64,000 nucleotides of DNA. It comes from Klebsiella phage HMGUkp2. The first letter of the stretch is position 1. The number at the start of each line of letters is the position of its first letter. The position numbers were made by a program, and so were the translations under genes. A model generated the notes under the pieces. The model had not been told where the DNA came from. It saw only the letters and a program-made list of their open reading frames with translations, and searched no databases. The stretch lies in sequence record PV683292.1. One strand, written 5' to 3'. Of the stretch, positions 3,884-21,285 are shown one piece after another.

Positions 3884-3888
3884 GGATA

Positions 3889-5481: not shown

Positions 5482-5531
5482 TTTACAACCTCGTTTGTTC
5501 GTGTTATGATACCCATATACCAACAAACGAG
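5482..5531 (+). promoter_or_regulatory. T4-type early promoter (GTTTAC-N18-TATGAT) embedded in stem-loop (PeSL-like); 11-bp perfect stem CCTCGTTTGTT/AACAAACGAGG whose 3' arm contains the SD
   Basis: seen in sequence; upstream of alc-like gene. Confidence 0.65.
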
Positions 5532-5539
5532 GAACCAAA

Positions 5540-6049
5540 ATGAACCTACAAACCATTTCTAATGATGATGTTGTTGCCCACTTCGAAGGTACTTCTCATG
5601 ACGGGATCTATGTCTATAAAGGCCAAAAGAAACTTGGATTCATTACGGACCTGCGCGTTACCATGGGTCGAAAACTGGCTACGAAGTTTAAGCAAAAACA
5701 GTATTCAACTAAGCAAGCCGAAGAACGCCGAGAAGCAATGCCGGCCGCAGTAGAAGAAATGCATTCATTTCTTGAAAATCAGTTGACTAAGTACGGAGCT
5801 GAAGTGAAAATCAATATCACCCAGCCTAATGTTCACCTGAATGGTCATAAATGCTATATTATTTGTGATCCTCTTTCTGACAAGTTCAATCGCTTAGGTA
5901 TTAAGCATTTGTATAAAACCAGCGAGGATATGGCCCTTGAACTCGACGGCTATAAAATCCAGGTAGACAAAGCTCCTAAGCATATTCTCGTCAACAACTT
6001 GTCTCGTGATGAGATTGTTGAGGTAATCAAAAAGTTATGTCTAAACTAA
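5540..6049 (+). CDS. alc: Alc-like protein (inhibitor of host transcription on C-containing DNA), by size and synteny
   Basis: 169 aa vs T4 Alc 167 aa; located between rnlA and the spanin genes exactly as T4 alc; preceded by early promoter. Confidence 0.5.
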   Translation: MNLQTISNDDVVAHFEGTSHDGIYVYKGQKKLGFITDLRVTMGRKLATKFKQKQYSTKQAEERREAMPAAVEEMHSFLENQLTKYGAEVKINITQPNVHLNGHKCYIICDPLSDKFNRLGIKHLYKTSEDMALELDGYKIQVDKAPKHILVNNLSRDEIVEVIKKLCLN

Positions 6050-6387
6050 AAATTTACATTATAGTCGGTCTACTAATTGCAGGTCTATTCGGTACTACAA
6101 AGTACCTGAGTTATCGAGTAGATACGCTAAAAGAACAAGTAGCCCAGATTGAAGGTGTAGCAAAAGCTCAGCAGCTGCAGATTGATCTTATTGCTACACA
6201 GCTGCAAGGTATCCAAGCTCTTACAGAAAAGAACAAGGCTGCTATCGATGCTCGTAATGCAAAAGATAAAACCTTGACCGCTAATAAAAAGCGTGAAGCT
6301 GAATTAGTAGACCCTAAAGCAGTAAAAGAAATAATAAACGATCCATTTAATGAGTTCGCTAGAGAGCTCCAGGAAGCGACCAGATGA
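6037..6387 (+). CDS. i-spanin (inner-membrane spanin subunit, PseT.3-like)
   Basis: N-terminal TM helix (KIYIIVGLLIAGLFG) followed by coiled-coil-like periplasmic region; overlaps downstream lipoprotein gene; T4 spanins are PseT.3/PseT.2 at this locus. Confidence 0.6.
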   Translation: MSKLKIYIIVGLLIAGLFGTTKYLSYRVDTLKEQVAQIEGVAKAQQLQIDLIATQLQGIQALTEKNKAAIDARNAKDKTLTANKKREAELVDPKAVKEIINDPFNEFARELQEATR

Positions 6388-6677
6388 AAAGAATGATATC
6401 GGCTGTATGTTTATCTCTTGCTCTGGTAGGATGCTCTCAGGCGATTCCTGAAGTGAAACCTGCGCCGAGAGTTGATGCTACCTGGCCGGATCCGATTAAA
6501 GAATACCAAGCCGAATGGCAGGTACATGAGATTGATGGACAGAAATGGGTCGGCATGCCGTTTACCGAGTTCCAGGATTTTCGTATCTGGACTAACGACA
6601 TCCTTCGGTATGTACAACAATCTAATAACGTGATATGTTATTATCGCGCTCCGTTAAAAGAGCCGAAATGTCAGTGA
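6384..6677 (+). CDS. o-spanin (outer-membrane lipoprotein spanin subunit, PseT.2-like)
   Basis: Signal peptide with lipobox LALVGC; 97 aa; start overlaps i-spanin stop (ATGA). Confidence 0.65.
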   Translation: MKRMISAVCLSLALVGCSQAIPEVKPAPRVDATWPDPIKEYQAEWQVHEIDGQKWVGMPFTEFQDFRIWTNDILRYVQQSNNVICYYRAPLKEPKCQ

Positions 6678-6720
6678 GGCTTCGGCCTCACTCGGATGAT
6701 AAAATTTTGAGGAACTTGTT

Positions 6721-7206
6721 ATGACTCTTCGTTCTAACTCTTTCGTTGCAGAACCATCCTATCTGTCTAACGTAAAAGTCACTTCTCTTCGCAAAATCAT
6801 GATGATTGGTTCTTGCGCTCTTACACCCCTTGAAAAGAAAGCAACCTTCAGTTACGAATGGAAAAATATCGACGGCATTGATTGTGTCACTAAAGTGATG
6901 TATTATGCCCCAGGTCAAGATTACGTGTCTCGTGTATATGATCTGAATCCGCAGACATACATTCGCTTATCCAAGTGGTATGCTATGATGCATCCGGTGT
7001 TTGACTACCCTCAGTTCTATGAAGATGCCGTAGAACGTAAACGTGTCCAAGATGTAGTTAAATGCTTTGAAGAAGCCGCTATTCAGCACGGTCAGCGTAA
7101 AGCAGCAGTGGCGAATGGCTTTATTTCTGATGTAGAATCTTATCTTCGCGGATCCGGTAAAATTTTGAAAGAAGCCCGCGAAGCTCTGTATGAGGAACTC
7201 TTTTAA
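6721..7206 (+). CDS. hypothetical protein (pseT.1-region)
   Basis: 161-aa ORF with good RBS context, T4-like early region. Confidence 0.5.
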   Translation: MTLRSNSFVAEPSYLSNVKVTSLRKIMMIGSCALTPLEKKATFSYEWKNIDGIDCVTKVMYYAPGQDYVSRVYDLNPQTYIRLSKWYAMMHPVFDYPQFYEDAVERKRVQDVVKCFEEAAIQHGQRKAAVANGFISDVESYLRGSGKILKEAREALYEELF

Positions 7207-7411
7207 TGACTAAAGAACAACTTGAAGAACTACGCGGCCTTATTTCCGAAGTTGAAATGAAATGCCTTATTTATGGACGAGCTTGCGAGCGCCATGATTT
7301 GAACGATGAATACTCTCGGTTCCCAGCTTTAAAGAAATATCGAACCGATAAACACCAAGCTTGGACCGAAGCATCTAATAAGTTGCATGTCTTTTTAAAC
7401 GGGTTAGTAAA

Positions 7412-7415
<4 letters not shown>
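7206..7415 (+). CDS. hypothetical small protein
   Basis: 69-aa ORF, start overlaps previous stop. Confidence 0.4.
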
Positions 7416-8779
<1,364 letters not shown>

Positions 8780-8780
<1 letters not shown>

Positions 8781-8818
8781 TTTACAACGGCTGGAAGGCA
8801 TGATATGATGTACTTCCA
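8780..8818 (+). promoter_or_regulatory. T4-type early promoter GTTTAC-N18-TATGAT with -10 in loop of 7-bp stem CTGGAAG/CTTCCAG (PeSL-like)
   Basis: seen in sequence. Confidence 0.6.
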
Positions 8819-8844
8819 GTCTACTTGTACTTGAGGAAAATGAT

Positions 8845-9060
8845 ATGTACAATAAGCATCATGAAGTTGAAGAAGAAGCTTACAAAATGCTTCGGAAATG
8901 TGTTGGAATGAGCATAACCCCAGCTTTGATTAATGAACTGGCGCGTATTCGTACAGACCTGAATACTCGTTACAAAGATGAGTACCACGTTGAGTTTTTG
9001 CCTCTTTCTGATGTTAATACGCATTTCGTTGTTAATGTTAAAGTACACACCGTTCATTAA
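8845..9060 (+). CDS. hypothetical protein
   Basis: 71-aa ORF downstream of early promoter/stem-loop at 8780-8818. Confidence 0.45.
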   Translation: MYNKHHEVEEEAYKMLRKCVGMSITPALINELARIRTDLNTRYKDEYHVEFLPLSDVNTHFVVNVKVHTVH

Positions 9061-9069
9061 GGAAAAGCT

Positions 9070-9348
9070 ATGTTCCCTAAATATTCTGAAGTAGTTAAAG
9101 TTGTTGCCTTGCAGGTTGTTGGTAATTACTGTGCTGATACCCTTGACAACTCCTTGAAAGCTAAAATGCACGCGGATTTCACAAGTGCTATTAATACGCT
9201 TATTCCAAATCATGGTAAAGTATCTCTCGAAGTAAATAGCATTGGCCTTCAGGCAGTTGTCGAAATTGTCTTTGAAGGCGGTGGTGGATTCACTGTTGAA
9301 GTAACAGGCATTTTCGGCACCCAAGAGGTTAATGTTTATGTACAGTGA
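9070..9348 (+). CDS. hypothetical protein
   Basis: 92-aa ORF with SD (aagga) upstream. Confidence 0.45.
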   Translation: MFPKYSEVVKVVALQVVGNYCADTLDNSLKAKMHADFTSAINTLIPNHGKVSLEVNSIGLQAVVEIVFEGGGGFTVEVTGIFGTQEVNVYVQ

Positions 9349-9568
9349 TAAGACCTTCACAGCTTCAGAGTTTGCCGAGCTAATTCCTAAGTTTGCTCAA
9401 TCTTTGATTAATAAGATATCTGAACGTAACCCAAGCGCAAAGCTAAATGTGACGCAGGAAACACCTGCGTCTTATCTATTTACCGTTAAAGGTTTCAAGT
9501 CAGAGTACTACTTGATTGAGTTATTGCCTAATAATCATATTCAATCTACCTCAGTATATGCTTTCTAA
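9332..9568 (+). CDS. hypothetical protein
   Basis: 78-aa ORF followed by GC hairpin 9566-9583. Confidence 0.45.
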   Translation: MFMYSDKTFTASEFAELIPKFAQSLINKISERNPSAKLNVTQETPASYLFTVKGFKSEYYLIELLPNNHIQSTSVYAF

Positions 9569-9611
9569 GGGCTTCGGCCCTTACTGGAGAATAATGTAAA
9601 TAAGGAACAAT

Positions 9612-10604
9612 ATGAGACCTTTAGTCGAAAGAATGATAAGCCCGGCTGAACTTGAGCGTCGTTGTAGGATTTCTCCAGAGCTGCAAAATCAAGTCAGTTT
9701 ACACCGCCAAGAAATCGATAAGATTATGACTGGGCACGATAAACGCCGTCTGGTTGTAGTAGGACCTTGTTCAATCCATGACGTAGTTGCTGCAGTTGAT
9801 TATGGTGAGCGCTTGGCTGAACTCCAAAAAGAACTTCCTAATCTTCTGCTTTGTATGCGTGTTTATTTTGAAAAACCTCGTACAACTGTCGGTTGGAAAG
9901 GTCTTATCAATGACCCATTCTTAGACGGCTCGTTTGAAATTAATGCTGGACTGGGTATTGCTCGCACCTTATGTCGCAAGCTTTTGCGAATGGGCCTACC
10001 GCTGGCAACAGAAGTTCTTGATCCGTTCACAATCAAATATCTGTCCGGTATTTTCTCTTGGGTCGCTATTGGCGCTCGCACTACCGAATCACAGACTCAT
10101 CGCGAAATCGCCTCAGGCCTGCCAATGACTGTCGGTTTTAAGAACGGGACAAATGGCTCTATTAAGGTTGCTACTGACGCTATGCAATCTGCGGCGTTCC
10201 CACACCACTATATGGGAATGGACCAAAACGGTGTGGTAGGCATTGTCTCAGCGCCAGGTAACAAGAGTACTCATATTGTTCTGCGTGGCGGTTCAGAAGG
10301 AACTAACTACGATAAAGAATCGGTTTTTGATGCTATCTCTCAGGCCCAGAAGGCCGGGGTTAACCAATACTTGATGGTTGATTGCTCTCATGCTAACGCC
10401 CAAGGTTCTTTCTTGAACCAGGTTGCAGTTTGTGCTGAAGCAGCAGAACTAGCGAACGTTCGAGGAATTATGTTAGAATCTAACCTTAAACAAGGTAATC
10501 AAAAGATTTCTACAGACCTTGAATATGGTGTATCAATTACTGATGCGTGTATTGGCTGGGAAACCACTGAAATGGTTCTCCGTAATCTGAATAACAAAGG
10601 TTAA
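9612..10604 (+). CDS. 3-deoxy-D-arabino-heptulosonate-7-phosphate (DAHP) synthase, class I (AroG/AroF/AroH type)
   Basis: 330 aa; diagnostic class-I DAHP synthase motifs RVYFEKPRTTVGWKGLINDP, IGARTTESQ.HRE.ASGL, GFKNGT.G, SITDACIGWE; alignable along full length with E. coli AroG. Confidence 0.9.
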   Translation: MRPLVERMISPAELERRCRISPELQNQVSLHRQEIDKIMTGHDKRRLVVVGPCSIHDVVAAVDYGERLAELQKELPNLLLCMRVYFEKPRTTVGWKGLINDPFLDGSFEINAGLGIARTLCRKLLRMGLPLATEVLDPFTIKYLSGIFSWVAIGARTTESQTHREIASGLPMTVGFKNGTNGSIKVATDAMQSAAFPHHYMGMDQNGVVGIVSAPGNKSTHIVLRGGSEGTNYDKESVFDAISQAQKAGVNQYLMVDCSHANAQGSFLNQVAVCAEAAELANVRGIMLESNLKQGNQKISTDLEYGVSITDACIGWETTEMVLRNLNNKG

Positions 10605-10606
10605 AA

Positions 10607-11167
10607 ATGAAAGCATCTACCTATCTTCAAATCGCATACCTGATTTCCCAAGAATCAAAATGCTGCTCTTGGAAAGTAGGTGCGGTTATCGAAAAAGATG
10701 GTCGCATCATTTCTACAGGGTATAACGGTTCTCCGGCCGGCGGAACTAACTGTTGTGACCATGCCGCACAGCAAGGTTGGACCAAGTTTATTCCTAATTC
10801 TGGGTCTGGCCGAATTTCAGGCAAAGGTGGACAAGTTGTTCTGGCTAAAGAACACAGACCCGCACATAGTGAATGGTCTTCTAAAAATGAAATCCACGCC
10901 GAACTGAACGCTATTTTGTTCGCGGCCCGTAAAGGTTCTTCAATTGAAGGCTCCACTCTGTATTGCACTGCATCTCCTTGCCCTGATTGTACTAAAGCTA
11001 TTTCTCAGTCAGGTATTAAAAAGGTTGTTTATGCGGAGCGCTATGATCGCTCTCCTGATGACTGGGCTGATATTCTGGTTGAAGCCGGAATTGAAGTTAT
11101 TGAATATAACCGTAAGAATCTTAACTCTCTGAACTGGGAACAGATTCGTAATTTTTGTGGTGAATAA
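10607..11167 (+). CDS. cd: dCMP deaminase
   Basis: 186 aa; zinc-binding HAE...PCxxC motifs (HAELNAI, SPCPDCTKAI); T4 synteny before 31.2/31.1/31. Confidence 0.9.
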   Translation: MKASTYLQIAYLISQESKCCSWKVGAVIEKDGRIISTGYNGSPAGGTNCCDHAAQQGWTKFIPNSGSGRISGKGGQVVLAKEHRPAHSEWSSKNEIHAELNAILFAARKGSSIEGSTLYCTASPCPDCTKAISQSGIKKVVYAERYDRSPDDWADILVEAGIEVIEYNRKNLNSLNWEQIRNFCGE

Positions 11168-11502
11168 TGAATCTTAACGAATTCGACTCTATCGTAAGCA
11201 TCAACCCGCCTATGCCAGAGCCTGTAGATGCAACTGAAAAATTTGCATTTATGCTCAAAGCTGCCGGTATTAATGTAATTGTTATCGGCGCTCCTTCGTT
11301 TTCTGTACAAACTATAAAACGTGGCGAGCGTTACAAAGTTGATATTGCATCTTTCAAGGCCCAGGATCTGGATCATCTGGTTTCTGAGATCGTGAAATTT
11401 AATCCGGATGTAGTTTATCTGCGTGAAGTAAAAGACTTTACTGAAATTGAAGGTAAACCTGCATACACTGTTCGCTTTAACTTTATTAAGGTAGAAGTAT
11501 GA
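11167..11502 (+). CDS. hypothetical protein (31.2-position)
   Basis: 111-aa ORF, ATGA overlap with cd. Confidence 0.5.
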   Translation: MNLNEFDSIVSINPPMPEPVDATEKFAFMLKAAGINVIVIGAPSFSVQTIKRGERYKVDIASFKAQDLDHLVSEIVKFNPDVVYLREVKDFTEIEGKPAYTVRFNFIKVEV

Positions 11503-11822
11503 AATTAACTACTGACCAAAAAATTGCTCTGCGTGAAGTTCTGAAAGTCAAACTATCCATGGGCGTATCAGATATAGTTTTCGAAAAAGCAGACGGCACT
11601 ATTCGTACTATGAAAGGTACCCGTGATAAAGATGTAGTTTCTTCTCTAGTTGGCGCCGAGATCTATGAAAGTTATGTGAATCCTTCTAAGCCACGTAAAG
11701 AATCCACCGATATGGTTCCTCTGTTTGATACCGAATTAAAACAATGGCGTGGATTCAGCATTGACAAACTGATCTCTGTTAACGGCATGAAAGCAGAACA
11801 TTTACTCCAATTTGTTGGCTAA
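11499..11822 (+). CDS. hypothetical protein (31.1-position)
   Basis: 107-aa ORF overlapping upstream gene. Confidence 0.5.
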   Translation: MKLTTDQKIALREVLKVKLSMGVSDIVFEKADGTIRTMKGTRDKDVVSSLVGAEIYESYVNPSKPRKESTDMVPLFDTELKQWRGFSIDKLISVNGMKAEHLLQFVG

Positions 11823-11828
11823 TCTGTT

Positions 11829-11860
11829 ATATGCTTTAAGAATGTTTTGATATTATTATT
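11829..11860 (+). promoter_or_regulatory. MotA-dependent middle promoter candidate for gene 31 (MotA box TATGCTTTA, 12-nt spacer, -10 TATTAT)
   Basis: seen in sequence; T4 gene 31 is known to have a middle promoter. Confidence 0.5.
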
Positions 11861-11886
11861 CTATCCTAACAACAAAAGAGATAACT

Positions 11887-12216
11887 ATGACTGATTTACC
11901 AATTCGTGCTCTTGGTGAGTATGTTATTTTAGTGTCTGAACCTGCCCAGGCTGGTGAGCCAGAAGTTTCTGCTGGCGGCATTATCATTGAACAACGCCGC
12001 TCTCAAGGCGAAGTTCCTGAACTGTGTGAAATCTATTCTATCGGTGAAGATGTTCCTAAAGGTTTCGTTGAAGTTGGCGATCTGACTCCAACCCCTTTAG
12101 GCAGCATCAAACATGTGACTCATCCTTTGGTTGCGGCTGGTATAGCTAAAGCTAAAGATATTAAGCAGAAATTCGTCACTGTACATTATAAAAATTTGAC
12201 GTGTGTTTACAAGTGA
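11887..12216 (+). CDS. 31: head assembly co-chaperonin (GroES analogue)
   Basis: 109 aa; near-identical core to T4 gp31 ([21 protein letters not shown]...G.II...R.QGEVPELC......G.DVP.GF.EVGDLT). Confidence 0.9.
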
Positions 12217-12221
12217 TATAA
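12214..12221 (+). promoter_or_regulatory. late promoter TATAAATA upstream of rIII
   Basis: exact 8-mer; ~130 nt upstream of rIII start. Confidence 0.35.
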
Positions 12222-12284
12222 ATAAAAGTATGAAGTGATGTGAGAACTACCTCCAAAAAGGGCATGTCACATTAACTTCTATGC

Positions 12285-12332
12285 GGTGGAGATGCGTTAA
12301 GCCGAATGGGTCTTAAGGCTCCACCTTTTATT
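12285..12332 (+). terminator. hairpin (7-bp stem GGTGGAG/CTCCACC, 27-nt loop) followed by UUUUAUU between gene 31 and rIII
   Basis: seen in sequence; atypical long loop. Confidence 0.35.
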
Positions 12333-12353
12333 CACCTCACTTGAGGTTCTATA

Positions 12354-12602
12354 ATGAAAGATACTATCAAATTTGTACTTGACATCCAGCGTCAATCCTG
12401 GAATAACGGCCACGAGAACTACGGCGCCTCCATCGATGTAGAAGCAGCAATGCTTGATCTGCTCGGTTATTTCAAACATCTGAACCCAGCTCAGAAAGCT
12501 CTTGAAGCCGAACTAGCTGCTAAAGATGAACTGAAATATGCTAAGCCGCTGTGTGCTAAGGCTCATAAAGCTGTTCGCCACTTTGTGGTAACGCTGAAGT
12601 AA
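12354..12602 (+). CDS. rIII: lysis-inhibition accessory protein rIII-like (by size/synteny)
   Basis: 82 aa as T4 rIII; immediately downstream of gene 31 as in T4. Confidence 0.5.
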   Translation: MKDTIKFVLDIQRQSWNNGHENYGASIDVEAAMLDLLGYFKHLNPAQKALEAELAAKDELKYAKPLCAKAHKAVRHFVVTLK

Positions 12603-12941: not shown

Positions 12942-12971
12942 ATGTATTTCTCCAAAATGGAAGACTTTATA

Positions 12972-13154: not shown

Positions 13155-13159
13155 GTTTA

Positions 13160-13200: not shown

Positions 13201-13245
13201 GTTTACATCAGCTTTAGGTTGTGGTATAGTACTCTTACACCAACA
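13201..13245 (+). promoter_or_regulatory. T4-type early promoter GTTTAC-N18-TATAGT followed by conserved leader CTCTTACACCAACAAACCGGAG
   Basis: seen in sequence; near-identical 27-nt block repeated at 14706-14732. Confidence 0.65.
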
Positions 13246-13259
13246 AACCGGAGAATAAA

Positions 13260-13625
13260 ATGAAAATCAATCTGAATGCTACTGTTAAGTGCAAAGACCA
13301 TGACGGCTATAAAGCCCAAGTAGTTCATGAAGCCCAGTGGATGCTTAGCAAAGAGCAATTCGAACTGGTTTACTGTATGACTCCTGAGGGCCCTTCAGAT
13401 GATTTCTCATGGAAAATTCGTTTGACTAATTTCTTCACCGGTGAAGAGTATGTTTTGAAAACCCTTGTTGTTGGTAAAATCATTTCCGAGACTTACGAAG
13501 ATGAAGACGGTTACTCAGAAGATGTAACGTACTACAAAAACGGCCGTCAAGTGGCTGATGACCTGATTGAAAAAATGAAAGCTAAAGGTCTTATTGATTT
13601 AACTCATTGGACCTTTATCGGTTAA
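13260..13625 (+). CDS. hypothetical early protein
   Basis: 121-aa ORF directly downstream of early promoter 13201 with gagga SD. Confidence 0.5.
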   Translation: MKINLNATVKCKDHDGYKAQVVHEAQWMLSKEQFELVYCMTPEGPSDDFSWKIRLTNFFTGEEYVLKTLVVGKIISETYEDEDGYSEDVTYYKNGRQVADDLIEKMKAKGLIDLTHWTFIG

Positions 13626-13631
13626 TTGACT

Positions 13632-13651
13632 GGGGCTTCGGCCCCTCCTTT
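13632..13651 (+). terminator. terminator GGGGCUUCGGCCCC + UCCUUUU
   Basis: seen in sequence. Confidence 0.6.
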
Positions 13652-13664
13652 TGAGGAAATAGAA

Positions 13665-14195
13665 ATGCGTAATTATGAACTGGATGCAACTTATAAGCTT
13701 TCCGACGAAGCGGTCAAGCGGTTCTCTGAAAGTAGCCATAAAGGATTAAATTACTGCCTGGCTCGTGAAATTGGTACTCGTCTTTGGAAGCCGGTTTCTC
13801 TCGATTCAAGTGGGTGTGTTCAAGCTATTGAAATGGTTGGCACCGGGCGAGTCATTGCACCTAAAGACCTTAACTGCGCTGATATCAAAGGCCGCGAACA
13901 ATCATATGTAATGTTTACCTGTGGTGAGCTTGATGTTGGCACTGTTGAGCGGTACATTGAACGTAATCCGGTTCAGGTAGAAGTCGAGCCTCTGTATCTT
14001 GTTCTAGAACGTTCTAAAAACTTTGAACGGGCTTCTATTGCTTATCGCGGCAATCAGTGTGCTTTCACTCTTGAAGAAGCAAAACAGATGGTTGCAGAAC
14101 TCTGTCTGATTGCTCCTGTTGAAACAACGTACGAGTTGTACAAATTCTACGGCACTGCAAAGCCTGTTGTTACCACCGTAATCGAAGTTAAATAA
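13665..14195 (+). CDS. hypothetical protein, member A of a tandem paralogous trio
   Basis: Start moved to ATG 13665 because ORF-track start 13626 overlaps the terminator hairpin 13632-13645; C-terminal region resembles ORFs 14205-14681 and 15139-15618. Confidence 0.45.
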   Translation: MRNYELDATYKLSDEAVKRFSESSHKGLNYCLAREIGTRLWKPVSLDSSGCVQAIEMVGTGRVIAPKDLNCADIKGREQSYVMFTCGELDVGTVERYIERNPVQVEVEPLYLVLERSKNFERASIAYRGNQCAFTLEEAKQMVAELCLIAPVETTYELYKFYGTAKPVVTTVIEVK

Positions 14196-14204
14196 GGAAC
14201 TAAA

Positions 14205-14681
14205 ATGGAACTCTATAAATTTGCATCAGAAGACGCTCGTCAGAAATTCGAACTCAGTAGCTGGGAAATCGATAATGCACTGGCTAAATTGCTGAAAGGT
14301 AAAATTTTTAGCTTAACTGAAAAGAAGGCTAATGGTACGGTTATAGCCATCGAAGTTGAAGGTGAACACTACAACTCTGATCGCCTTCGTAAAGAATACC
14401 CTGAGTTCGGAATTGATGAATACGCTGAAGCTCTGTTTACTGGCGATGAAATCGGTACATTGGTCGTTAAGGTTCCTGAACCGGTTGAAAAGTTCTGTGT
14501 AATGACTGCTGACGGAAATAGTGGGTTCTTGATTCGTGCTCATGATATGACTCTGGAACGGGCAGAAGAAGTTGCGGCTCTCTACGTACGCGACAACGAA
14601 GACTCACAGGCAATAGTTATCAAAAAGATTTCGTCGTTTACTGCAAAGAAAGAAATCGTGATAGATAAAGTTCAATACTAA
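14205..14681 (+). CDS. hypothetical protein, member B of paralogous trio
   Basis: 158 aa; shared motifs with A and C (G.VIAIEV.G, C-terminal EEA..A..V...VIK). Confidence 0.45.
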   Translation: MELYKFASEDARQKFELSSWEIDNALAKLLKGKIFSLTEKKANGTVIAIEVEGEHYNSDRLRKEYPEFGIDEYAEALFTGDEIGTLVVKVPEPVEKFCVMTADGNSGFLIRAHDMTLERAEEVAALYVRDNEDSQAIVIKKISSFTAKKEIVIDKVQY

Positions 14682-14692
14682 GTGTTTACAAT

Positions 14693-14735
14693 GGTGTAGG
14701 AGTATGGTATAGTACTCTTACACCAACAAATGAGG
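14693..14735 (+). promoter_or_regulatory. T4-type early promoter GTTTAC-N18-TATAGT within 12-bp imperfect stem GGTGTAGGAGTA/TACTCTTACACC (PeSL-like)
   Basis: seen in sequence. Confidence 0.65.
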
Positions 14736-14743
14736 ATAAAATA

Positions 14744-15100
14744 ATGAACTTCACCAACTTCGAACGCAAATATGTTCATGATTTCGATCAATCGCCTATC
14801 TGCCTCTGGAAACATAATAACGGTGTTGTAGCTCAGATCGATATGTACTGGGAAGATAACTATGTTTTCATCAGCTTTGAGAACGGTCCTACTCTAGATA
14901 TTAAACTGGAAGGTTCCATGATTAAAGTTGGTTTTCACGATGATGTTCGTGTTCGCAACTTTGCTACACATCCATCATGGCACGGTGATAATCGCAAAAC
15001 TTTGGTTAAGCTTTATCTGCGCCATGTGCTCGGTTTAAGAACTACTGAAGAACAGCGTGAAGCAATCTGGGATATCGTTTCAAACGAATTCACAATTTAA
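14744..15100 (+). CDS. hypothetical early protein
   Basis: 118-aa ORF downstream of early promoter 14693; followed by terminator 15107-15120. Confidence 0.5.
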   Translation: MNFTNFERKYVHDFDQSPICLWKHNNGVVAQIDMYWEDNYVFISFENGPTLDIKLEGSMIKVGFHDDVRVRNFATHPSWHGDNRKTLVKLYLRHVLGLRTTEEQREAIWDIVSNEFTI

Positions 15101-15106
15101 TCGAAC

Positions 15107-15126
15107 GGGGCTTCGGCCCCATCTTT
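15107..15126 (+). terminator. hairpin GGGGCUUCGGCCCC + AUCUUUG (weak U tail)
   Basis: seen in sequence. Confidence 0.5.
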
Positions 15127-15138
15127 GAGGAAATTACT

Positions 15139-15618
15139 ATGAACGTTACTGGCAAAACATTTAAACTGTCTACAGAGAAGTTCAACGAATACTTAAGTCG
15201 TTATAGTAAAATAGCTGAAGTTTTTGTTGAGTGTAATCCTACCAATTTACCATTCAAGGTTTTGTCTTCTGATGAAGGTGGTAACATTCTAGCTATCGAA
15301 ATCCCTGGCGGCAAAGTCCTTCAAGCCTATGAAGGTGAGCTTTCTGATTACTGGTGTATTTTCTTAGATACTGCGTACAATAAGGCTATTCCGGGTTTCC
15401 ATTTGATTGAGACAGATCCCGTAGTGGCTCCTTCTGAAGAAGAAACCGGTTATTACGTTCTTACCATTAACAAAGACTCCAAAGCTATTTTGGGTCCTTT
15501 GACTTCTAAAGATGCTTATGAGTTCGCTGAGCGTCAAGCTCTTAACGCTGTTCCTGAAGTAGTTGTTCAGGTTCTGAAAATCGAAGCCACTGCATCTGTA
15601 GAGGTAAAATTCAAATGA
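15139..15618 (+). CDS. hypothetical protein, member C of paralogous trio
   Basis: 159 aa; resembles 14205-14681. Confidence 0.45.
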   Translation: MNVTGKTFKLSTEKFNEYLSRYSKIAEVFVECNPTNLPFKVLSSDEGGNILAIEIPGGKVLQAYEGELSDYWCIFLDTAYNKAIPGFHLIETDPVVAPSEEETGYYVLTINKDSKAILGPLTSKDAYEFAERQALNAVPEVVVQVLKIEATASVEVKFK

Positions 15619-15899
15619 TCGTATCAAGCTTCTGGAACGAAAAACGTGGAAGCATCGAAACTATCATCAGCGATACCTTCGATGGCAAAGTACCTACTGT
15701 TGATGCCGTTCGTAAGTACATCGATAAGTACTGCCCTGTAGAGTTTCGTCTTATCAACGGCGCTGACTCTTTGCAAATCAACTATATCAACGCACGTCTG
15801 GAAAAATTAGTTACAGATCGACCTGTAGGTTATTCTGACGACAACGGTGATAACGCCGTTATGCCTAAAGAGCCTAATAAATTCAAAACTAAGTTCTGA
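15615..15899 (+). CDS. hypothetical protein
   Basis: 94-aa ORF, ATGA overlap. Confidence 0.45.
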   Translation: MIVSSFWNEKRGSIETIISDTFDGKVPTVDAVRKYIDKYCPVEFRLINGADSLQINYINARLEKLVTDRPVGYSDDNGDNAVMPKEPNKFKTKF

Positions 15900-15909
15900 G
15901 GAAAATATT

Positions 15910-16074
15910 ATGCGTGTTTCTGTTCCTAAAGCCCAAGCTCCGCGCCTGGCTCGTTGCTTGATGAACAATGAAATGATCGAAGTTATTAGTTGTGAAGTTG
16001 AAAGTAATAAAGTGGTTTATTACGTAGATGCTCCAGAGTTCTTTGAATTTCCTAACTGGGTTACAGTGCAATGA
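15910..16074 (+). CDS. hypothetical small protein (54 aa)
   Basis: ATG at 15910 with gagga SD; ORF-track 15847 start lies inside upstream gene. Confidence 0.35.
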   Translation: MRVSVPKAQAPRLARCLMNNEMIEVISCEVESNKVVYYVDAPEFFEFPNWVTVQ

Positions 16075-16253
16075 TTCAAGTAGCTAATGGTTTTAAACAA
16101 GGCGAAATCCATCTAATCTCGGCTGGGTTGCCTAAATCAGGCTTCTATATGGAAGTCCTGAAGAAACGACTCGAACAAGGAAATTACATAGTTATAACGG
16201 ACTTCGAGTCATCTGTAGACTTTGAAAAATTAAAGGATTTCTATGCGCTTTAG
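16071..16253 (+). CDS. hypothetical small protein
   Basis: 60-aa ORF with ATGA overlap. Confidence 0.35.
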   Translation: MIQVANGFKQGEIHLISAGLPKSGFYMEVLKKRLEQGNYIVITDFESSVDFEKLKDFYAL

Positions 16254-16455
16254 AAGACATGATACAGTCTCATTAGGCCTCTCTGGTATCCCAGGTGTTG
16301 TTATCTATTGTTTAGAAGCAATTCCACAGTACCACATCGAACCGTGGTATAATGTAAACTGGGTTGATGGTAATACTTCACTGCACGCTGAAAGCGAGCT
16401 TTTTAAAATATCTAAACTAAGAGATCTAACTAATGAAGAAGGTTATTCTTACTGA
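16243..16455 (+). CDS. hypothetical small protein
   Basis: 70-aa ORF overlapping neighbours. Confidence 0.35.
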   Translation: MRFRRHDTVSLGLSGIPGVVIYCLEAIPQYHIEPWYNVNWVDGNTSLHAESELFKISKLRDLTNEEGYSY

Positions 16456-17275
16456 TATCGATGGTGTGGTTATCCAGTGGCAATCAGGCCTGGCTTATTT
16501 TGCACACAAATATGGTATCAAAACTGACGTCATTATTGAGATGATTTCAGACGAAAAGTTCCGGTGCGCTTCGGATATTTTCCAAACTGATCTTGCTACC
16601 GGAAAGCAGCTTATGGAAAAGTACAATAACTCCGATTTTATTCGATACCTTGCCGCGTATAAAGATGCCCTGAAGGTTATCAATGACCTAAAGAAAGACT
16701 ACGAATTTGTAGCTATAACTGCGCTAGGCAACAGTATTGATGCCAAGCTGAATAGACAGTTCAATCTGAATTCTTTGTTCCCTGGCGCATTCCAGGAAAT
16801 CCTGATGTGTGGTCATTCAGAGTCTAAGGATGCCCTTCTTTCTCAGGCTAAAGAAAAATATGGATCTCGGATTGTTTGTTATATCGATGATCTGCCTTCT
16901 CACTGTGAAGCTGCCATGAAGGTATTCAAAGGAACGGATGTCGATGTGTTCTTTATGCCTCGCGGCGAAAGAGCCGAGAAAACAGGTGCTTATTTTGTTA
17001 AAGACTGGGCTGAAGTTCAGTATATGATTTCTAAGCGTTCTTCTGATATTGGGAACCTGGCTACTCTTCATAAAATAGCAGGTACTCCTGGGACCCGTAA
17101 AGATCATGAAGATGCCATTTGGGAAGTAATCCGTAAGGCCCAAGAAGCTAATAAAAATAAGCCTTGGGCCCAAACACCTTTACGCCCGGTTGTCCCATTT
17201 ACTCCAGAGCCGTACATCAATTGCAGAGACAAATGGACCATTAAAAGTCCGTCCTCTTTAAGGGCATCCTTCTGA
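16433..17275 (+). CDS. HAD-superfamily hydrolase-like protein (possible nucleotidase/phosphatase)
   Basis: N-terminal motif I VILTDIDGVV typical of haloacid dehalogenase-like phosphatases; 280 aa; in 30.x region. Confidence 0.5.
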   Translation: MKKVILTDIDGVVIQWQSGLAYFAHKYGIKTDVIIEMISDEKFRCASDIFQTDLATGKQLMEKYNNSDFIRYLAAYKDALKVINDLKKDYEFVAITALGNSIDAKLNRQFNLNSLFPGAFQEILMCGHSESKDALLSQAKEKYGSRIVCYIDDLPSHCEAAMKVFKGTDVDVFFMPRGERAEKTGAYFVKDWAEVQYMISKRSSDIGNLATLHKIAGTPGTRKDHEDAIWEVIRKAQEANKNKPWAQTPLRPVVPFTPEPYINCRDKWTIKSPSSLRASF

Positions 17276-17282
17276 GGTAGCT

Positions 17283-17558
17283 ATGTTCGTGGTTCATACT
17301 CTTATAGACGGAAAACATAGTACACGTGACTTCGGTCACGTTAACATGTTCTTCCGTGAAAACCCTTTGTTCAGACAAGCTAAGGATGAAGAAATCTTTA
17401 AACAATGTGTTGAGCAAGGGTTCATTTATATAAGCGAATACCTCTGCGATACCGTTAATGGCCGGAGAGCTATGATTACTTATCATAAGAAGCTAGATCT
17501 GCTTCTGGATGAAGTAGCTTATAATAAGACTACTTATAACGGAAGGCGAATTAAATGA
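17283..17558 (+). CDS. hypothetical protein
   Basis: 91-aa ORF immediately upstream of and overlapping ligase gene. Confidence 0.45.
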   Translation: MFVVHTLIDGKHSTRDFGHVNMFFRENPLFRQAKDEEIFKQCVEQGFIYISEYLCDTVNGRRAMITYHKKLDLLLDEVAYNKTTYNGRRIK

Positions 17559-19033
17559 TTTTAGATATCCTTAACGAACTTGCTGCTACAGATTCAACCA
17601 ACGAAAAGAAAGCGATTATGAATCGCGAAAAGAATAATGAACTTCTGAAGCGTGTATTCAGAATGACATATTCTCGTCGTTTGAACTACGGTATCAAAAA
17701 ATGGCCTCAGGCCGGTGAACCCACACAAGCTGCAGGCCTTTTAACTCTAGAAGATTGCTTAGATTTCGCAGAGTTTACTTTAGCTCCTAGAAAGGTAACA
17801 GGTAATGCGGCCATTGCTGAGTTAGCCTCGTATATCGCAGATGGTTCTCCGGAAATTATAGAAGTTTTACGCCGTGTTCTGATGCGGGATCTTGAATGTG
17901 GCACAGGTACAACGATTGCTAATAAAACCTGGAAAAACCTCATTCCTGAGTACCCACAGATGTTGGCTTCATCTTTTGACGAAGCCAAAATTAAAAAGCA
18001 TATTAAGTTTCCAGCGTATGCCCAGCTAAAGGCTGATGGTGCACGGTGCTTTGCCGAAGTACGTGATGATGGGGTTTTGTTCTTTTCTCGCTCTGGTAAC
18101 AATTATCTAGGTCTTGATAAATTGGCTGAACAGCTAATGGAAATGACTAAAGAAGCCCGCGAGAAACACCCCGGCGGTGTAATGATTGATGGTGAGCTAG
18201 TTTATCATGCTCCAGCCAATTTCAAAGAGAAAGATTCTCTTGACTTCCTGTTCGGCGACGTTGTTGAAGAACAAGAAGAGACTGTTGCTGACCGCAGCAC
18301 TTCAAATGGGTTAGCAAACAAATCTCTGAAGGGCACAATTACCACTGAAGAAGCCGAAGGTATGAAATTCCAGGTCTGGGATTACGTTCCTCTGGATGTA
18401 ATTTATTCTGAAGGTAAACTCAAGAGCTTTAAGTACGATGTACGTTTCCGTGCATTAGAACTTATGGCTGAATCCTTCAGCCAGATTATTCTTATCGAAA
18501 ATCATTTGGTTAATAGCCTTGAAGAAGCTCGGGCTGTTTACCAGAAATACCGTGACCAGGGCTTAGAAGGCATTATTCTTAAGAATATGGATGGTCTGTG
18601 GGAAGATGCTCGCTCTAAGAACCAGTTCAAGTTCAAAGCAGTAATAGATATTGCTTTACGAGTTACTGGGTACTATGCTCACTCTAAAGATCCGAATAAA
18701 ATTGGCGGTGTTAACCTAGCTTCTGAGTGTGGACGTATTACTACTGACTGTGGTTCAGGTTTCACAGATACAACTCATAAGAAAATTGATGGTGAATGGA
18801 TTCTGATTCCTATCGACCAACGCGGCGAACTTGACCGTGAATCTCTGATGCAAGATGCTATTGCTGGTAAGTTAATTGACCGTATTGCCGATTGTGAATG
18901 TAATGGTTGGACGACTTCTAAAGGCCGTAAAGACGGAACTGTAGGCGTGTTTTTACCAATTATTAAAGGCTGGCGATTTGACAAAGAAAAAGCCGATACC
19001 TTTGAAGAGGTGTTTGGTGATTGGCCATTCTAA
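17555..19033 (+). CDS. 30: ATP-dependent DNA ligase
   Basis: 492 aa; strong similarity to T4 DNA ligase incl. adenylation motif KADGAR (KAD..R) and MILDILNE...LLKRV..TYSR N-terminus. Confidence 0.95.
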   Translation: MILDILNELAATDSTNEKKAIMNREKNNELLKRVFRMTYSRRLNYGIKKWPQAGEPTQAAGLLTLEDCLDFAEFTLAPRKVTGNAAIAELASYIADGSPEIIEVLRRVLMRDLECGTGTTIANKTWKNLIPEYPQMLASSFDEAKIKKHIKFPAYAQLKADGARCFAEVRDDGVLFFSRSGNNYLGLDKLAEQLMEMTKEAREKHPGGVMIDGELVYHAPANFKEKDSLDFLFGDVVEEQEETVADRSTSNGLANKSLKGTITTEEAEGMKFQVWDYVPLDVIYSEGKLKSFKYDVRFRALELMAESFSQIILIENHLVNSLEEARAVYQKYRDQGLEGIILKNMDGLWEDARSKNQFKFKAVIDIALRVTGYYAHSKDPNKIGGVNLASECGRITTDCGSGFTDTTHKKIDGEWILIPIDQRGELDRESLMQDAIAGKLIDRIADCECNGWTTSKGRKDGTVGVFLPIIKGWRFDKEKADTFEEVFGDWPF

Positions 19034-19037
19034 TTAA

Positions 19038-19059
19038 GGAGCCTTCGGGCTCCTTTTTG
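19038..19059 (+). terminator. terminator GGAGCCUUCGGGCUCC + UUUUUGG after ligase gene
   Basis: seen in sequence. Confidence 0.75.
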
Positions 19060-19060
19060 G

Positions 19061-19068
19061 CATAAATA
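19061..19068 (+). promoter_or_regulatory. variant late promoter CATAAATA 25 nt upstream of alt
   Basis: 7/8 match, correct spacing to SD aagggga/ATG. Confidence 0.3.
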
Positions 19069-19093
19069 GTAGTATCTTATAAGGGGAATAATT

Positions 19094-21238
19094 ATGTCTG
19101 AACAACTTAACGAAGTTTTCGACTCTGATAGTGATAAGAACTATCCTGTCGTGAACTTGAATTTGAAATCTAAAGTACCGCAGATCTGGGCTATTAAAGT
19201 ACCTGGAAATGAAAACTTAGTAGCTAGAATGGTATCATACCAATCTGAAGGCGATGCTATTAAACAGGTTAAAATGGGTGACAAATATGCCCATTTAATT
19301 TTAATGTCTCTTAGTGCTAAAGGGGCCCCAGCCGAGCTTAAAGGTGGCTTGGGTAGTAATCCAATCGGGGCAATTAATACAATTTTTGATACGGTTTATG
19401 AGCAGGTAAAACAGTTAAGAATGGATGCCGTGATGTTCCGGTTCCCGACTAAAAAGATGAAAGGTCAAGGTCCTGTTCTGCAACGTCTTATTGCCCGTCT
19501 GTGTATGTCCCGCACTGGTGGTAAATTTAAAGTCCTGGATGCTCTCTATAACTTTACCGGTAAACATACATATATTCTTATCTACCGTAAAAATAAACCC
19601 TTAGAGGACATCTCTGGGATTCCTGGCATCAATACTGAGCTATATACTAAAGTTGATTCTGCTGTAGGTGATGTATGGGTATCCAAGAAAGACGGTATTC
19701 AAGTCACTAAAGATGAAGCTATCGCCGGCTCTATTGCCGAGGTAGAGAAAACTCGTACAGATATCGCTGTTATTCGTCGTACTAAAATTTCTCGTCGGCA
19801 AGTTGCAGCTAGCCAGGCTCTTTCTACTGATGTGGTTATGGACCCTTCTAAGTTTGAAGAATATGAAGCTTCTGCTATAGAATTCATTAAGCCTAGTACT
19901 GCCCAGGAAATTCCTGAAGCAGCCCAAATATTAGACTCTGTCAGTTCTAAAGCTTCTAGGGCCCAATCCGCCAAATTAGCGGCATCTGGTGCAGCTTTCC
20001 AATTAAGCTCTTTAATTACTATTAAACTAAGCGAAAGAGATCAGTTTGAAGAGTATTTCTCTAAAGAGCTTATTAAAAGAATAGGCAATGCCCCGTTAAC
20101 TTCTGTTAAGAGCATGCAGGCTTATGCTCAGACTCTTTTAGATGCTTTAGCTGAACGTGAATACGAGGCTATGGAGCACATTATGACTCGTACTCCAGAA
20201 TACCTGGAACAGTCTGAACGCGAAGCTATGGCCAGAAATCTTTGGAACATTGAACGGACCAAACTAATCAAAGCAGCTCTCCAAGGGTATGCCAAAAATG
20301 TTTCTTCAGGAATTGAGTTAATTACAATGACTCGCAGTCCTGCTCAGTATACTCCTGCAGAAAAGCGTGGAATTAGAGAATACGTAGGTTCTGGGTACAC
20401 TGATATCAATAATATGCTTCTTGGAAGATATACAGAAGACAACTATGATACATTAAGCGCTAAAGAAGTTACAACGGCTATTAAAAATCTTGATGATGCA
20501 TTTAAGAAAGGTGACCGTTTACCAGAAGGACTTACTTTATGGCGCTCTCAGACTGTCCGTCAGCCTATTTTTGAATCTCTTGTTAAAAATAGGGTATTTT
20601 ATTTCCGAAACTACGTTTCGACGTCTTTGATGCCTATTATTTTTGGTGGTTGGAAAGGTAATCAATCTGTAGCAATGACTTCAGATAATACTAGGGCTGT
20701 TTTAAACACTCCCGGCAATAGTGCAGAAACAGTTAAACCAGCCAGTTGGCTTAACGCCGAGGTAGATACTAATGGTGAAAGTGAGGTTGTCGATAACCGT
20801 AAGCAGGCCGAACTTAATAAAGTTATGATCGGTTGGGCTATTGAAGGTGGCCATAAAACCAACGTCGTTTATCCAGGCGACTTAAGTAATATGTCCGGTG
20901 AAATGGAAGTTATCTTGCCGCGAGGGACTATGCTTCAAATTAATAAGATTGTAGATGCATCTTATTCTGACGGCATAGTACATGATAACCAAAAATTCAT
21001 TCAGGCCGAGGTTATGACTTCAGACCAAATTGAAGAATCTATGGTTGTTTATGACGGCGATGTTCTGGTAGAATCTGGTGAACTGGTTCCGGTAGGCTCT
21101 GGTACTATCGTTACTGTTGACGGCGAAGATACTGATATCAGTGCTTCTACGTTCTTGACTACTAAACGGGACATCCTTAGCATCTTGGCTTCGTTTATCG
21201 ATATTGAAGATACTCCGGAAAAATTTGTACAAGGCTAG
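19094..21238 (+). CDS. alt: ADP-ribosyltransferase Alt (packaged internal head protein)
   Basis: 714 aa; similarity to T4 Alt (KMGDK..H...., FYFRN.VSTSL.P, ILPRGT motifs); located after gene 30 as in T4. Confidence 0.8.
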   Translation: MSEQLNEVFDSDSDKNYPVVNLNLKSKVPQIWAIKVPGNENLVARMVSYQSEGDAIKQVKMGDKYAHLILMSLSAKGAPAELKGGLGSNPIGAINTIFDTVYEQVKQLRMDAVMFRFPTKKMKGQGPVLQRLIARLCMSRTGGKFKVLDALYNFTGKHTYILIYRKNKPLEDISGIPGINTELYTKVDSAVGDVWVSKKDGIQVTKDEAIAGSIAEVEKTRTDIAVIRRTKISRRQVAASQALSTDVVMDPSKFEEYEASAIEFIKPSTAQEIPEAAQILDSVSSKASRAQSAKLAASGAAFQLSSLITIKLSERDQFEEYFSKELIKRIGNAPLTSVKSMQAYAQTLLDALAEREYEAMEHIMTRTPEYLEQSEREAMARNLWNIERTKLIKAALQGYAKNVSSGIELITMTRSPAQYTPAEKRGIREYVGSGYTDINNMLLGRYTEDNYDTLSAKEVTTAIKNLDDAFKKGDRLPEGLTLWRSQTVRQPIFESLVKNRVFYFRNYVSTSLMPIIFGGWKGNQSVAMTSDNTRAVLNTPGNSAETVKPASWLNAEVDTNGESEVVDNRKQAELNKVMIGWAIEGGHKTNVVYPGDLSNMSGEMEVILPRGTMLQINKIVDASYSDGIVHDNQKFIQAEVMTSDQIEESMVVYDGDVLVESGELVPVGSGTIVTVDGEDTDISASTFLTTKRDILSILASFIDIEDTPEKFVQG

Positions 21239-21285
21239 TTTACAACACCACATGGATGTGGTATAGTCTGTATTACACAAACAAA
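21237..21285 (+). promoter_or_regulatory. T4-type early promoter GTTTAC-N18-TATAGT with inverted repeat CCACAT/ATGTGG and conserved ACAAACAAATGAGGA leader
   Basis: seen in sequence. Confidence 0.6.

Follow-up and report, generated by a model that had tools for sequence, protein, structure and literature searches.

Hairpins embedded in the early promoters of a Marfa-like Klebsiella phage as candidate RNA isoform filters

What purpose is served by an inverted repeat that lies inside an early promoter? The question is posed by five sites (sites 1-5) in a 64,000-nucleotide stretch of the genome of Klebsiella phage HMGUkp2 (sequence record PV683292.1; "the window" denotes this whole stretch), at which a GTTTAC-type promoter is followed by a Shine-Dalgarno (SD) sequence and a start codon. 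A sequence-only reading of the window had described all five as promoter early stem-loops (PeSLs) and had assigned them to the mobile cassettes proposed to shuffle genes in T4-type phages. The five sites are PeSLs in composition and are T4-type early promoters, an already known kind of element. As to what the hairpins do, the evidence favors a regulatory answer, which is considered probable: these are ordinary T4-type early promoters combined with a hairpin and a ribosome-binding site (RBS), and the hairpin distinguishes RNA that reads through from the upstream gene from the transcript of the promoter itself.

Promoters, hairpins and two predicted transcript isoforms

The five promoter matches are genuine. 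The pattern GTTTACA-N17-TATRRT occurs five times in 64 kb, against 0.01 expected from shuffled sequence, and all five exact matches are intergenic and on the + strand, the strand of the early genes. The coordinates first proposed for them agree with those found here (Table 1) to within 1 nt, apart from 14693, which is the start of the 5' stem arm of site 4, whose GTTTAC begins at 14684. At every site the gap between GTTTAC and the -10 element is 18 nt (or 17 nt, taking TTTACA as the -35), the -10 has a TG ahead of it and is thereby TGn-extended, and the SD (GAGGA or GGAGA) lies 6-8 nt ahead of the ATG. The stop codon TAG of the upstream gene overlaps the -35 at sites 1, 2 and 5. Looser matches to GTTTAC-N-TANNNT at 9697, 49122 and 56328 are intragenic and lack the other promoter features.

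T4 early promoters (Pe) have been characterized as "uber" UP/-35/TGn/-10 promoters that carry extra consensus regions (Hinton 2010, PMC2988021). The five sites resemble them in the GTTTACA -35, the TGn-extended -10, the form TAnnnT, the additional conserved positions after the -10 and the location ahead of immediate-early genes. They differ in that the consensus after the -10 is genus-specific and in that the UP region is only mildly AT-rich (AT fraction of 0.60-0.73 in the 30 nt upstream of the -35, vs 0.59 for the window), being mostly the coding end of the upstream gene. The sites would be early promoters read by host sigma70 that open early transcription units.

The hairpins are less uniform than the promoters. 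When each cassette was folded from the -35 to the ATG and compared with shuffles, significantly stable hairpins were found at sites 1, 2 and 4 (-20.4, -20.1 and -21.1 kcal/mol; z = -5.5, -3.65 and -4.16), whereas the folds of sites 3 and 5 are no more stable than those of shuffles (-8.1 and -8.8 kcal/mol; z = +0.13 and +0.26). The claim that the promoters are embedded in stem-loops thus holds for the former three and fails for the latter two. At site 1, on the boundary of rnlA (gene 63) and alc, the stem is a perfect 11-bp helix whose 3' arm is the leader itself, as had been proposed, and this arm contains the alc SD. The hairpins at sites 2 and 4 are tight (13-14 bp, 6-nt loops), flank the -10 and leave the SD untouched; the 3' arm at site 4 includes the predicted start site (+1) near 14720. 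At site 3 the place of the embedded stem is taken by an intrinsic terminator (AGGGACTCC-TACG-GGAGTCCCT with a T-run), identified in a terminator scan, 10 nt upstream of the -35. Site 5 has only a weak palindrome (CCACATGGATGTGG) in its spacer. None of the embedded stems was flagged in the terminator scan, and no T-run follows them (3' flank ACCAACAAA or TCTACTTG).

Transcription from a sigma70 promoter is expected to start about 7 nt after the -10, which is established geometry, and every 5' arm is upstream of the start site so predicted. The hairpin should therefore be confined to RNA extending in from the upstream gene (read-through RNA), and hence it would tell two transcript isoforms apart. 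RBS opening costs were computed as constrained-ensemble opening energies, the mean unpaired probability of the SD having proved a blunt measure. At site 1, opening the stretch from SD-2 to AUG+5 costs 1.9 kcal/mol in the promoter-proximal RNA vs 14.6 kcal/mol in the read-through RNA; at sites 2-5 the isoforms differ by just 1-2 kcal/mol. Of 22 distinct alc cassettes, 16 have an opening cost that is higher by more than 5 kcal/mol in read-through RNA, and the median difference is 8.8 kcal/mol. RNA reading through from rnlA would be translationally silent for alc, and the short promoter-proximal mRNA would be open. Alc, which terminates host transcription, is produced in the immediate-early burst (PMC2988021). 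It would be translated only from its own early transcript, and the prediction for alc is a simple switch, one mRNA isoform being translatable and the other silent.

There are T4 precedents for such an arrangement. In e, soc, 49 and I-TevI a hairpin sequesters the RBS, and an internal promoter yields a short, translatable RNA (PMC3014915). At site 1, and only there among the five, the SD (5529-5532) is likewise within a helix, here of 11 bp, on upstream-initiated RNA; the predicted transcript of the internal promoter lacks the 5' strand of the helix, and the arrangement is kept in related phages. The difference is one of timing: the internal promoter of the described cases is late (TATAAATA) and delays expression, whereas that of site 1 is an early sigma70 promoter, which would restrict translation to the immediate-early burst. 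The site 1 element works like the e, soc, 49 and I-TevI hairpins without being a member of the described set. Literature searches, which were incomplete in coverage, found no description of an alc SD-masking hairpin.

A different use of the same helix is suggested by its closeness to rnlA: just 8 nt separate the stop codon of that gene (5479-5481) from the 5' arm, and many members of the family have a stop codon abutting the -35. The hairpin might serve translational coupling, wherein alc on read-through RNA stays silent until a ribosome finishing rnlA melts the 5' arm, so that Alc synthesis is tied to that of RnlA and not blocked. This is most improbable, given that the same architecture is present where the stop lies further upstream (loci L025, L026 and L031, and T6) and that a terminating ribosome would, from its footprint, reach just the first 1-2 bp of a helix of 11-13 bp.

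Conservation of the hairpins among relatives

The alc locus was collected from IMG/VR and from GenBank phages including T6, Roth20, p000v, WSPA and Apostate. In nearly all of these loci GTTTACA follows the rnlA stop, the 5' arm begins 1-3 nt after the -35, the loop holds the -10 and the alc SD forms the 3' arm. Arm sequences vary by lineage and remain complementary (5'/3' arms: window, CCTCGTTTGTT/AACAAACGAGG; CIP9-like, CCCATTTTGTT/AACAAAATGGG; L018, CCTCATTTCGTT/AACGAAATGAGG; Roth20, TCCTCATCAG/CTGATGAGGA; L030, TCTCCTCAG/CTGAGGAGA; WSPA, TCCTCGTTTTGAT/ATCAAAACGAGGA). Duplexes of cognate arms have a mean energy of -17.8 kcal/mol, vs -10.8 kcal/mol for non-cognate arms (p = 6e-9). In an alignment fitted with a covariance model, comprising 13 cassettes of several genera, T6 among them, the paired fraction of helix cells is 93.9%, vs 74.4 +/- 2.0% in shuffles (0/500 as high), and both sides have changed in 11 of the 13 pairs, vs 5.1 +/- 1.5 in shuffles. 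When the register is slid, pairing is just 37-52%. The site 1 helix is thus held across T4-like genera by compensatory changes, and the stems are under selection. A MAFFT alignment of the alc cassettes placed the helix out of register, the arms carrying paired indels, and was replaced by the duplex energies and the covariance-model alignment.

There are exceptions to the common design. Four alc cassettes (PEi20-like, fHe-Yen9-01-like and Apostate) have a -10-flanking stem that ends short of the SD, three (Mosigvirus-like) have a spacer hairpin only, and one lineage has a terminator and no GTTTAC promoter. As a separate observation on this locus, in a 170-kb T4-like lineage (L010/L028, IMGVR_UViG_2706795401) an N-terminal fragment of alc is duplicated in front of the complete gene, at about 1465-2245 of locus L010; it is preceded by a terminator hairpin, not by a GTTTAC promoter.

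At site 2, one stem position forms a compensatory series among three Marfa-group phages: T-A in the window, T.G in F48 and C-G in R3_1. The orthologues of site 4 in other genera all have a strong stem, differing in sequence and even in architecture; among the examples, GCTGATTGAGTGT/ACACTCAATCAGC surrounds the -10, and CTCCGTTGTAT/ATACAACGGAG and CTCCGAGGTTT/AAACCTCGGAG mask the SD. The upstream terminator of site 3 is kept in other genera; pairing of spacer and SD in the site 3 homologues is weak and inconsistent, and no stem is claimed there. The spacer palindrome of site 5 decays without compensation in relatives; for the site 5 gene IMG/VR supplied just three close ones.

A family of early promoters in a related genome

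Clarke_MM3 is a close relative (95% identical), and its complete genome was assembled and scanned for GTTTAC-type promoters. The scan yielded 35 such promoters forming one repeat family, all on the early strand and outside the late region, including counterparts of all five window sites. Most precede genes for hypothetical proteins; others precede alc, regB, motA, asiA, srd, ADP-ribosylase, denV-like and cef genes. Nineteen of the 35 fold with z < -2, and 17 with z < -3. In the dominant design a 5' arm with the consensus GGTGTAGGAGC occupies positions 10-21, counted from the G of GTTTAC, and the 3' arm GCTCCTACACC positions 30-41, directly after the -10. About half of the promoters would in addition have evolved a complementary 5' arm within the -35/-10 spacer, which is otherwise free to vary.

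The -10-flanking helix was tested with all 29 Clarke_MM3 promoters of 18-nt spacing, unselected. Of its cells, 62.8% are paired, vs 56.1 +/- 1.4% in shuffles, and the covariation is 0.267 vs 0.184 (0/500 shuffles as high for either). The number of pairs per promoter is bimodal, with at least 10 of 12 pairs formed in 12 of the 29. Conservation of the stems in relatives, on which the sequence-only reading had made its case depend, is therefore borne out, compensatory changes being seen in the alc helix, in this helix and in the site 2 series. That the promoters are plain ones and the stems incidental by-products of a shared consensus, or of chance, is a strongly disfavored explanation. It would account for sites 3 and 5, which have no significant fold, for a 3' arm that is conserved for promoter reasons whatever its pairing, and for non-cognate arms that pair at 56% already; it does not account for z-scores down to -5.5, the bimodal pair counts, the shuffle results of both the alc and the Clarke_MM3 test, or the series at site 2.

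The conserved leader noted by the sequence-only reading has a related explanation. In the window its motif, ACMAACAAAYSRRGA, is exact at sites 1, 4 and 5 and is missing at site 2; allowing at most one mismatch there are four matches, vs 0.19 expected, and a looser form (CAACAAAYGAGGA, at most two mismatches) is not above chance (4 matches vs 3.4 expected). In almost all Clarke_MM3 promoters nCTCYTACACCAAC is conserved after the -10 even without a complementary 5' arm, the 3' half of the repeat being kept without the 5' half in 17 of the 29. Because it is kept in promoters that lack the complementary arm, the leader is identified as the conserved stretch of the promoter family that comprises the discriminator and the initially transcribed region, and it also serves as the 3' arm. 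The consensus GTTTACA-N2-GGTGTAGGAGC-N-TGnTAnnnT-nCTCYTACACCAAC can serve for mapping early transcription units in Marfa-like therapeutic Klebsiella phages.

The repeated block seen at sites 3 and 4 belongs to the same region. It had been given as a near-identical 27-nt block at 13234-13260; the sites do share a block, which is exactly identical over 26 nt (13222-13247 and 14705-14730) and consists of the -10 plus the initially transcribed region. In Clarke_MM3 and loci L054-L087, the roughly 15 nt after the -10 are uniform within a genome and differ between genera (TATAGTACTCTTACACCAAC in this group, TATAGTATAAACTCAATAAAC in another, TACTATAGACTTGTACCAC in a third); early promoters thus show concerted evolution. 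Occasional gene conversion could account for the identity of sites 3 and 4 and for the genus-specific uniformity, and shared selection could do so equally well.

At sites 2 and 4 the hairpins most likely mark the upstream message's 3' end, acting as attenuators or as stabilizers of that end. The canonical terminator would do at site 3 what these hairpins do at sites 2 and 4, and site 5 would be a bare promoter. In Clarke_MM3 an upstream terminator hairpin is present at none of the 19 stemmed promoters vs 6 of the 16 unstemmed ones (Fisher estimate of about 0.005, post hoc). An attenuating or 3'-end-protecting role is suggested by this complementary distribution of stems and true terminators, together with the published reporter result that one PeSL stem-loop lowers downstream expression (PMC2839356). 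The embedded hairpins resemble T-even terminators and C(UUCG)G hairpins as stable hairpins at gene boundaries, where site 3 has a true terminator, and differ from the terminators at sites 1, 2 and 4 in having no T-run and in overlapping the promoter.

The SD-masking design of site 1 is not confined to alc. It is found in five Clarke_MM3 promoters (159859, 150802, 104890, 92172 and 62339, the last being site 1), and it recurs ahead of other early genes, namely those for ADP-ribosylase and a denV-like protein and the site 4 orthologues of other genera. A more far-reaching proposal can be put, on which opinion is evenly balanced: that early-promoter hairpins are primarily RNA isoform filters rather than recombination modules, and that the alc SD mask is an unrecognized early counterpart of the T4 e hairpin. 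The spacer of the promoter itself would supply this mask, compensatory evolution would have kept it from Klebsiella Marfa-like phages to T6, and it would confine synthesis of Alc, a host-shutoff protein sensitive to dose, to the immediate-early burst and silence alc on middle and late read-through RNA from rnlA.

The likeness to PeSLs extends to most of their described features. PeSL elements are known from the phage pairs RB49/phi1, PST/T4 and nt-1/KVP40 (Arbiol et al. 2010, PMC2839356; Comeau et al. 2014, PMC4122927). As in those, an upstream stop is followed by a sigma70-type early promoter, a stem-loop, and then an SD and start codon; the stem-loop lies within the -35/-10 interval, overlaps the -10 or is upstream of the -35; the boxes are about 17 nt apart, the -35 is TTTACW as in the PST/T4 pair, and each genome has tens of copies, most of them preceding small genes of unknown function. 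In PeSLs an AT-rich tract also precedes the -35; the AT fraction of that stretch at the five sites, mostly coding sequence, is the one given above for the UP region. The match includes a stem at sites 1, 2 and 4 and, by way of the terminator, at site 3, and it stops short of site 5, which has no real stem. Among the differences, the stem is GGTGTAGGAGC/GCTCCTACACC here and G-run/C-run in RB49, and the five positional subclasses set out in the text of PMC2839356 consulted here do not include a class whose 3' arm is formed by the SD. Furthermore, several copies here are ancient orthologous promoters (alc, regB, motA, asiA, modA-like, srd), not ORFan-linked insertions, and their association with indels is not above chance, as described below. 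The PeSL concept thereby gains a concrete, testable regulatory meaning in one more T4-like branch. To our knowledge, PeSLs have not previously been described in this phage group.

Several points weigh against the read-through interpretation. The SD is unmasked in 6 of the 22 alc cassettes, and F48 (L004) has a site 1 5' arm, CCTTGATTGCT, with three uncompensated substitutions (-12.0 vs -20.4 kcal/mol), a natural variant that can be used for testing the masking model. The alc alignment was fitted to structure, so that its pairing is somewhat inflated; its result is matched by the shuffle and slide controls and by the independent duplex test. The complementarity of stems and terminators was defined as a test only after the data had been seen, and the embedded hairpins, having no T-run, are not canonical intrinsic terminators; the role proposed at sites 2 and 4 is the weakest step. 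Start sites, early activity of the promoters and read-through are all predictions, as is the actual effect on translation or termination. Finally, G.U vs A.C counts (4 vs 3 and 11 vs 5) do not clearly separate RNA-level from DNA-level structure.

This last point touches on the alternative that the inverted repeats act as DNA, either as palindromic operators of a phage repressor that shuts off early promoters or as cruciforms centered on the -10. In one genome about 12-15 promoters do have the repeat centered on the -10, with the common consensus GGTGTAGGAGC...GCTCCTACACC, the G.U vs A.C counts are not decisive, and the mechanism by which T4 early promoters are shut off has been reported as unknown (PMC3014915, PMC2988021). 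However, the arms vary between promoters and genera while remaining complementary (GGCTGGAAGG, AAGGGTC, GTCTGTAGGAC, GCTGATTGAGTGT), which fits base pairing rather than a fixed half-site; the 17 promoters in which only the 3' half is kept do not fit either. In the alc class the 3' arm shifts from the -10 to the SD, with loops of 20-35 nt, which is the logic of an RBS and not of an operator. A DNA-level function is accordingly considered quite improbable.

Promoters and differences in gene content

Whether the cassettes also act in gene shuffling was assessed by comparing the window with five Marfa-group genomes, by BLAST and by reading of the junctions; the comparison covers one 21.6-kb region and is a small sample. 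Bases 5000-22000 are 95.5% identical to Klebsiella phage Marfa over their full length, and about 20 further Marfa-group T4-like phages match at 89-96%. By the Marfa annotation and the open reading frame (ORF) list, positions 1-21586 hold early and middle genes on the + strand, in the order nrdA, nrdB, denA, rnlA, alc, spanins, pseT, small ORFs, an aroF-like gene, cd, gene 31, rIII, small ORFs, DNA ligase, alt and a small alt-downstream ORF, after which late baseplate genes follow on the - strand.

The promoters were proposed to be mobile recombination cassettes that flank the most variable islands: repeats serve as patches of homology, and exchange between them inserts, deletes or swaps the small ORFs alongside. 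That association is not upheld. Breakpoints are found at 8 of 38 gene junctions, and only one of the five sites, site 2, is at one, vs about 1.05 expected by chance. The largest indel (1.45 kb, including site 4) does not end in promoters; its ends are direct repeats of a UUCG-tetraloop hairpin (GGGGCTTCGGCCCC) and an SD box (TTTGAGGAAAT), and in Biddle_MM4 and EI a single copy of hairpin plus SD joins the two flanks. The indel at 6726-7191 is bounded by TGAGGAACT..ATGACT repeats of the SD/start type. The remaining breakpoints involve an intron bearing a homing endonuclease, free-standing endonucleases and a mosaic in alt (Table 1). The indel ends are marked by short punctuation repeats of several kinds, not by promoters specifically, and differences in gene content within the window come mostly from such other repeats (UUCG hairpin plus SD, SD/start boxes) and from homing endonucleases.

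Site 2 itself is a genuinely plastic spot, with three states: it is empty in R3_1, where the pseT stop overlaps the -35; it holds ORF 8484-8780 in the window; and in EI it holds a seg-like homing endonuclease that carries its own GTTTAC promoter, which leaves the insert with a promoter on either side. In phages outside the Marfa group, another gene stands ahead of the site 2 gene, with no promoter. The promoters of sites 1, 3 and 4, on the other hand, are at orthologous positions across several genera, and these sites are therefore old and syntenic rather than mobile.

The model of mobile cassettes, which is already published, draws on the three states and the bracketed insert at site 2, on the identical 26-nt block at sites 3 and 4 and the standing of the cassettes as the top direct-repeat family of the region, and on a -10 remnant at the variable nrdA/nrdB spacer; the initially transcribed consensus, uniform per genome and different between genera, would fit homogenization by gene conversion. 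It is nonetheless judged unlikely, in view of the chance-level association, the nature of the other indel ends and the positional conservation of sites 1, 3 and 4. In addition, the identity from copy to copy is just 63-75% over 60 nt, and the arms evolve in a compensatory way, a sign of selection for pairing, which homology in recombination does not require. Caution is thus warranted in that not every promoter/stem-loop cassette is a shuffling hot spot.

Table 1. Coordinates of the five promoter cassettes and of breakpoints and repeats in the window
Feature	Position	Strand	Remarks
Site 1 cassette	5481..5542	+	rnlA/alc boundary
Site 1 -35 GTTTAC	5481-5486	+	overlapped by rnlA stop TAG
Site 1 5' arm	5489-5499	+	within promoter spacer
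Site 1 -10 TATGAT	5505-5510	+	predicted +1 near 5517
Site 1 3' arm	5522-5532	+	contains alc SD GAGGA (5529-5533); alc ATG 5540
Site 2 cassette	8780..8847	+	
Site 2 -35	8780-8785	+	overlapped by stop TAG of ORF 8484-8780
Site 2 arms	5' 8789-8801; 3' 8808-8821	+	hairpin flanks the -10
Site 2 -10 TATGAT	8804-8809	+	
Site 2 SD; ATG	8833-8837; 8845	+	SD outside hairpin, free
Intrinsic terminator upstream of site 3	13159-13190	+	from terminator scan
Site 3 cassette	13201..13262	+	no significant internal stem
Site 3 -35; -10 TATAGT	13201-13206; 13225-13230	+	
Site 3 conserved initially transcribed block	within 13222-13247	+	
Site 3 SD GGAGA; ATG	13250-13254; 13260	+	
Site 4 cassette	14684..14746	+	
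Site 4 -35; -10 TATAGT	14684-14689; 14708-14713	+	
Site 4 arms	5' 14692-14705; 3' 14712-14725	+	3' arm is the conserved initially transcribed sequence
Site 4 SD; ATG	14732-14736; 14744	+	
Site 5 cassette	21238..21301	+	bare promoter
Site 5 -35	21238-21243	+	overlapped by alt stop TAG
Site 5 weak spacer palindrome	within about 21247-21262	+	
Site 5 -10 TATAGT	21262-21267	+	
Site 5 SD; ATG	21287-21291; 21299	+	
Breakpoint, nrdA/nrdB spacer	2579-2740		384-nt ORF instead in F48 and R3_1
Breakpoint, nrdB	3378/3381		intron with homing endonuclease in Biddle_MM4 and EI; none in window
Breakpoint, ORF 6721-7206	6726-7191		ORF missing in Biddle and EI
SD/start repeat TTTTGAGGAACTTGTTATGACT	6705..6727	+	left end of ORF 6721-7206 indel; partner ~7189-7211
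Breakpoint at site 2	8485-8780		ORF deleted in R3_1, replaced in EI by seg-like endonuclease; right edge is site 2 -35
Breakpoint between aroF-like gene and cd	10592-10603		free-standing endonuclease in Biddle_MM4 and EI; none in window
Breakpoint, three ORFs including site 4	13660-15104		missing in Biddle and EI
UUCG hairpin + SD box, left copy	13629..13667	+	direct repeat
UUCG hairpin + SD box, right copy	15104..15141	+	same repeat, bounding three-ORF indel
Breakpoint in alt	19816-20831		mosaic in C-terminal third

A few further observations were made in the same region. C(UUCG)G hairpins (GGGGCTTCGGCCCC and variants) are also present at 3886-3906, 6677-6692, 9568-9583 and 19037-19055, and thus at at least six junctions in the window. 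Within the alt mosaic (19816-20831), a short part aligns with F48 and R3_1 at only about 70% and the rest does not align, the flanks being about 90% identical. Positions 2564-2585, which directly follow the nrdA stop and lie on the edge of the nrdA/nrdB spacer, hold a -10 and initially transcribed sequence (GTAGTATAGTACTTGCA) that is 77% identical to site 3 and has no recognizable GTTTAC -35; this remnant may be a degraded "half PeSL".

Rfam at gathering thresholds returned nothing in the window. The 340 nt between rIII and the next ORF (12603-12941) contain no convincing ORF, appear richer in GC than the sequence around them, fold with a z of only -0.6 and have no Rfam match (the best hit in a search around 12200-13300 was a snoRNA, E = 0.48); in relatives only tiny hypothetical ORFs are annotated there. 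Upstream of gene 31 (11828-11886) is a middle-promoter-like site, in which a MotA-box-like ATGCTTTAA lies about 12 nt before a TATTAT -10, and the leader that follows, CTAACAACAAAAGAGA, resembles that of the early promoters.

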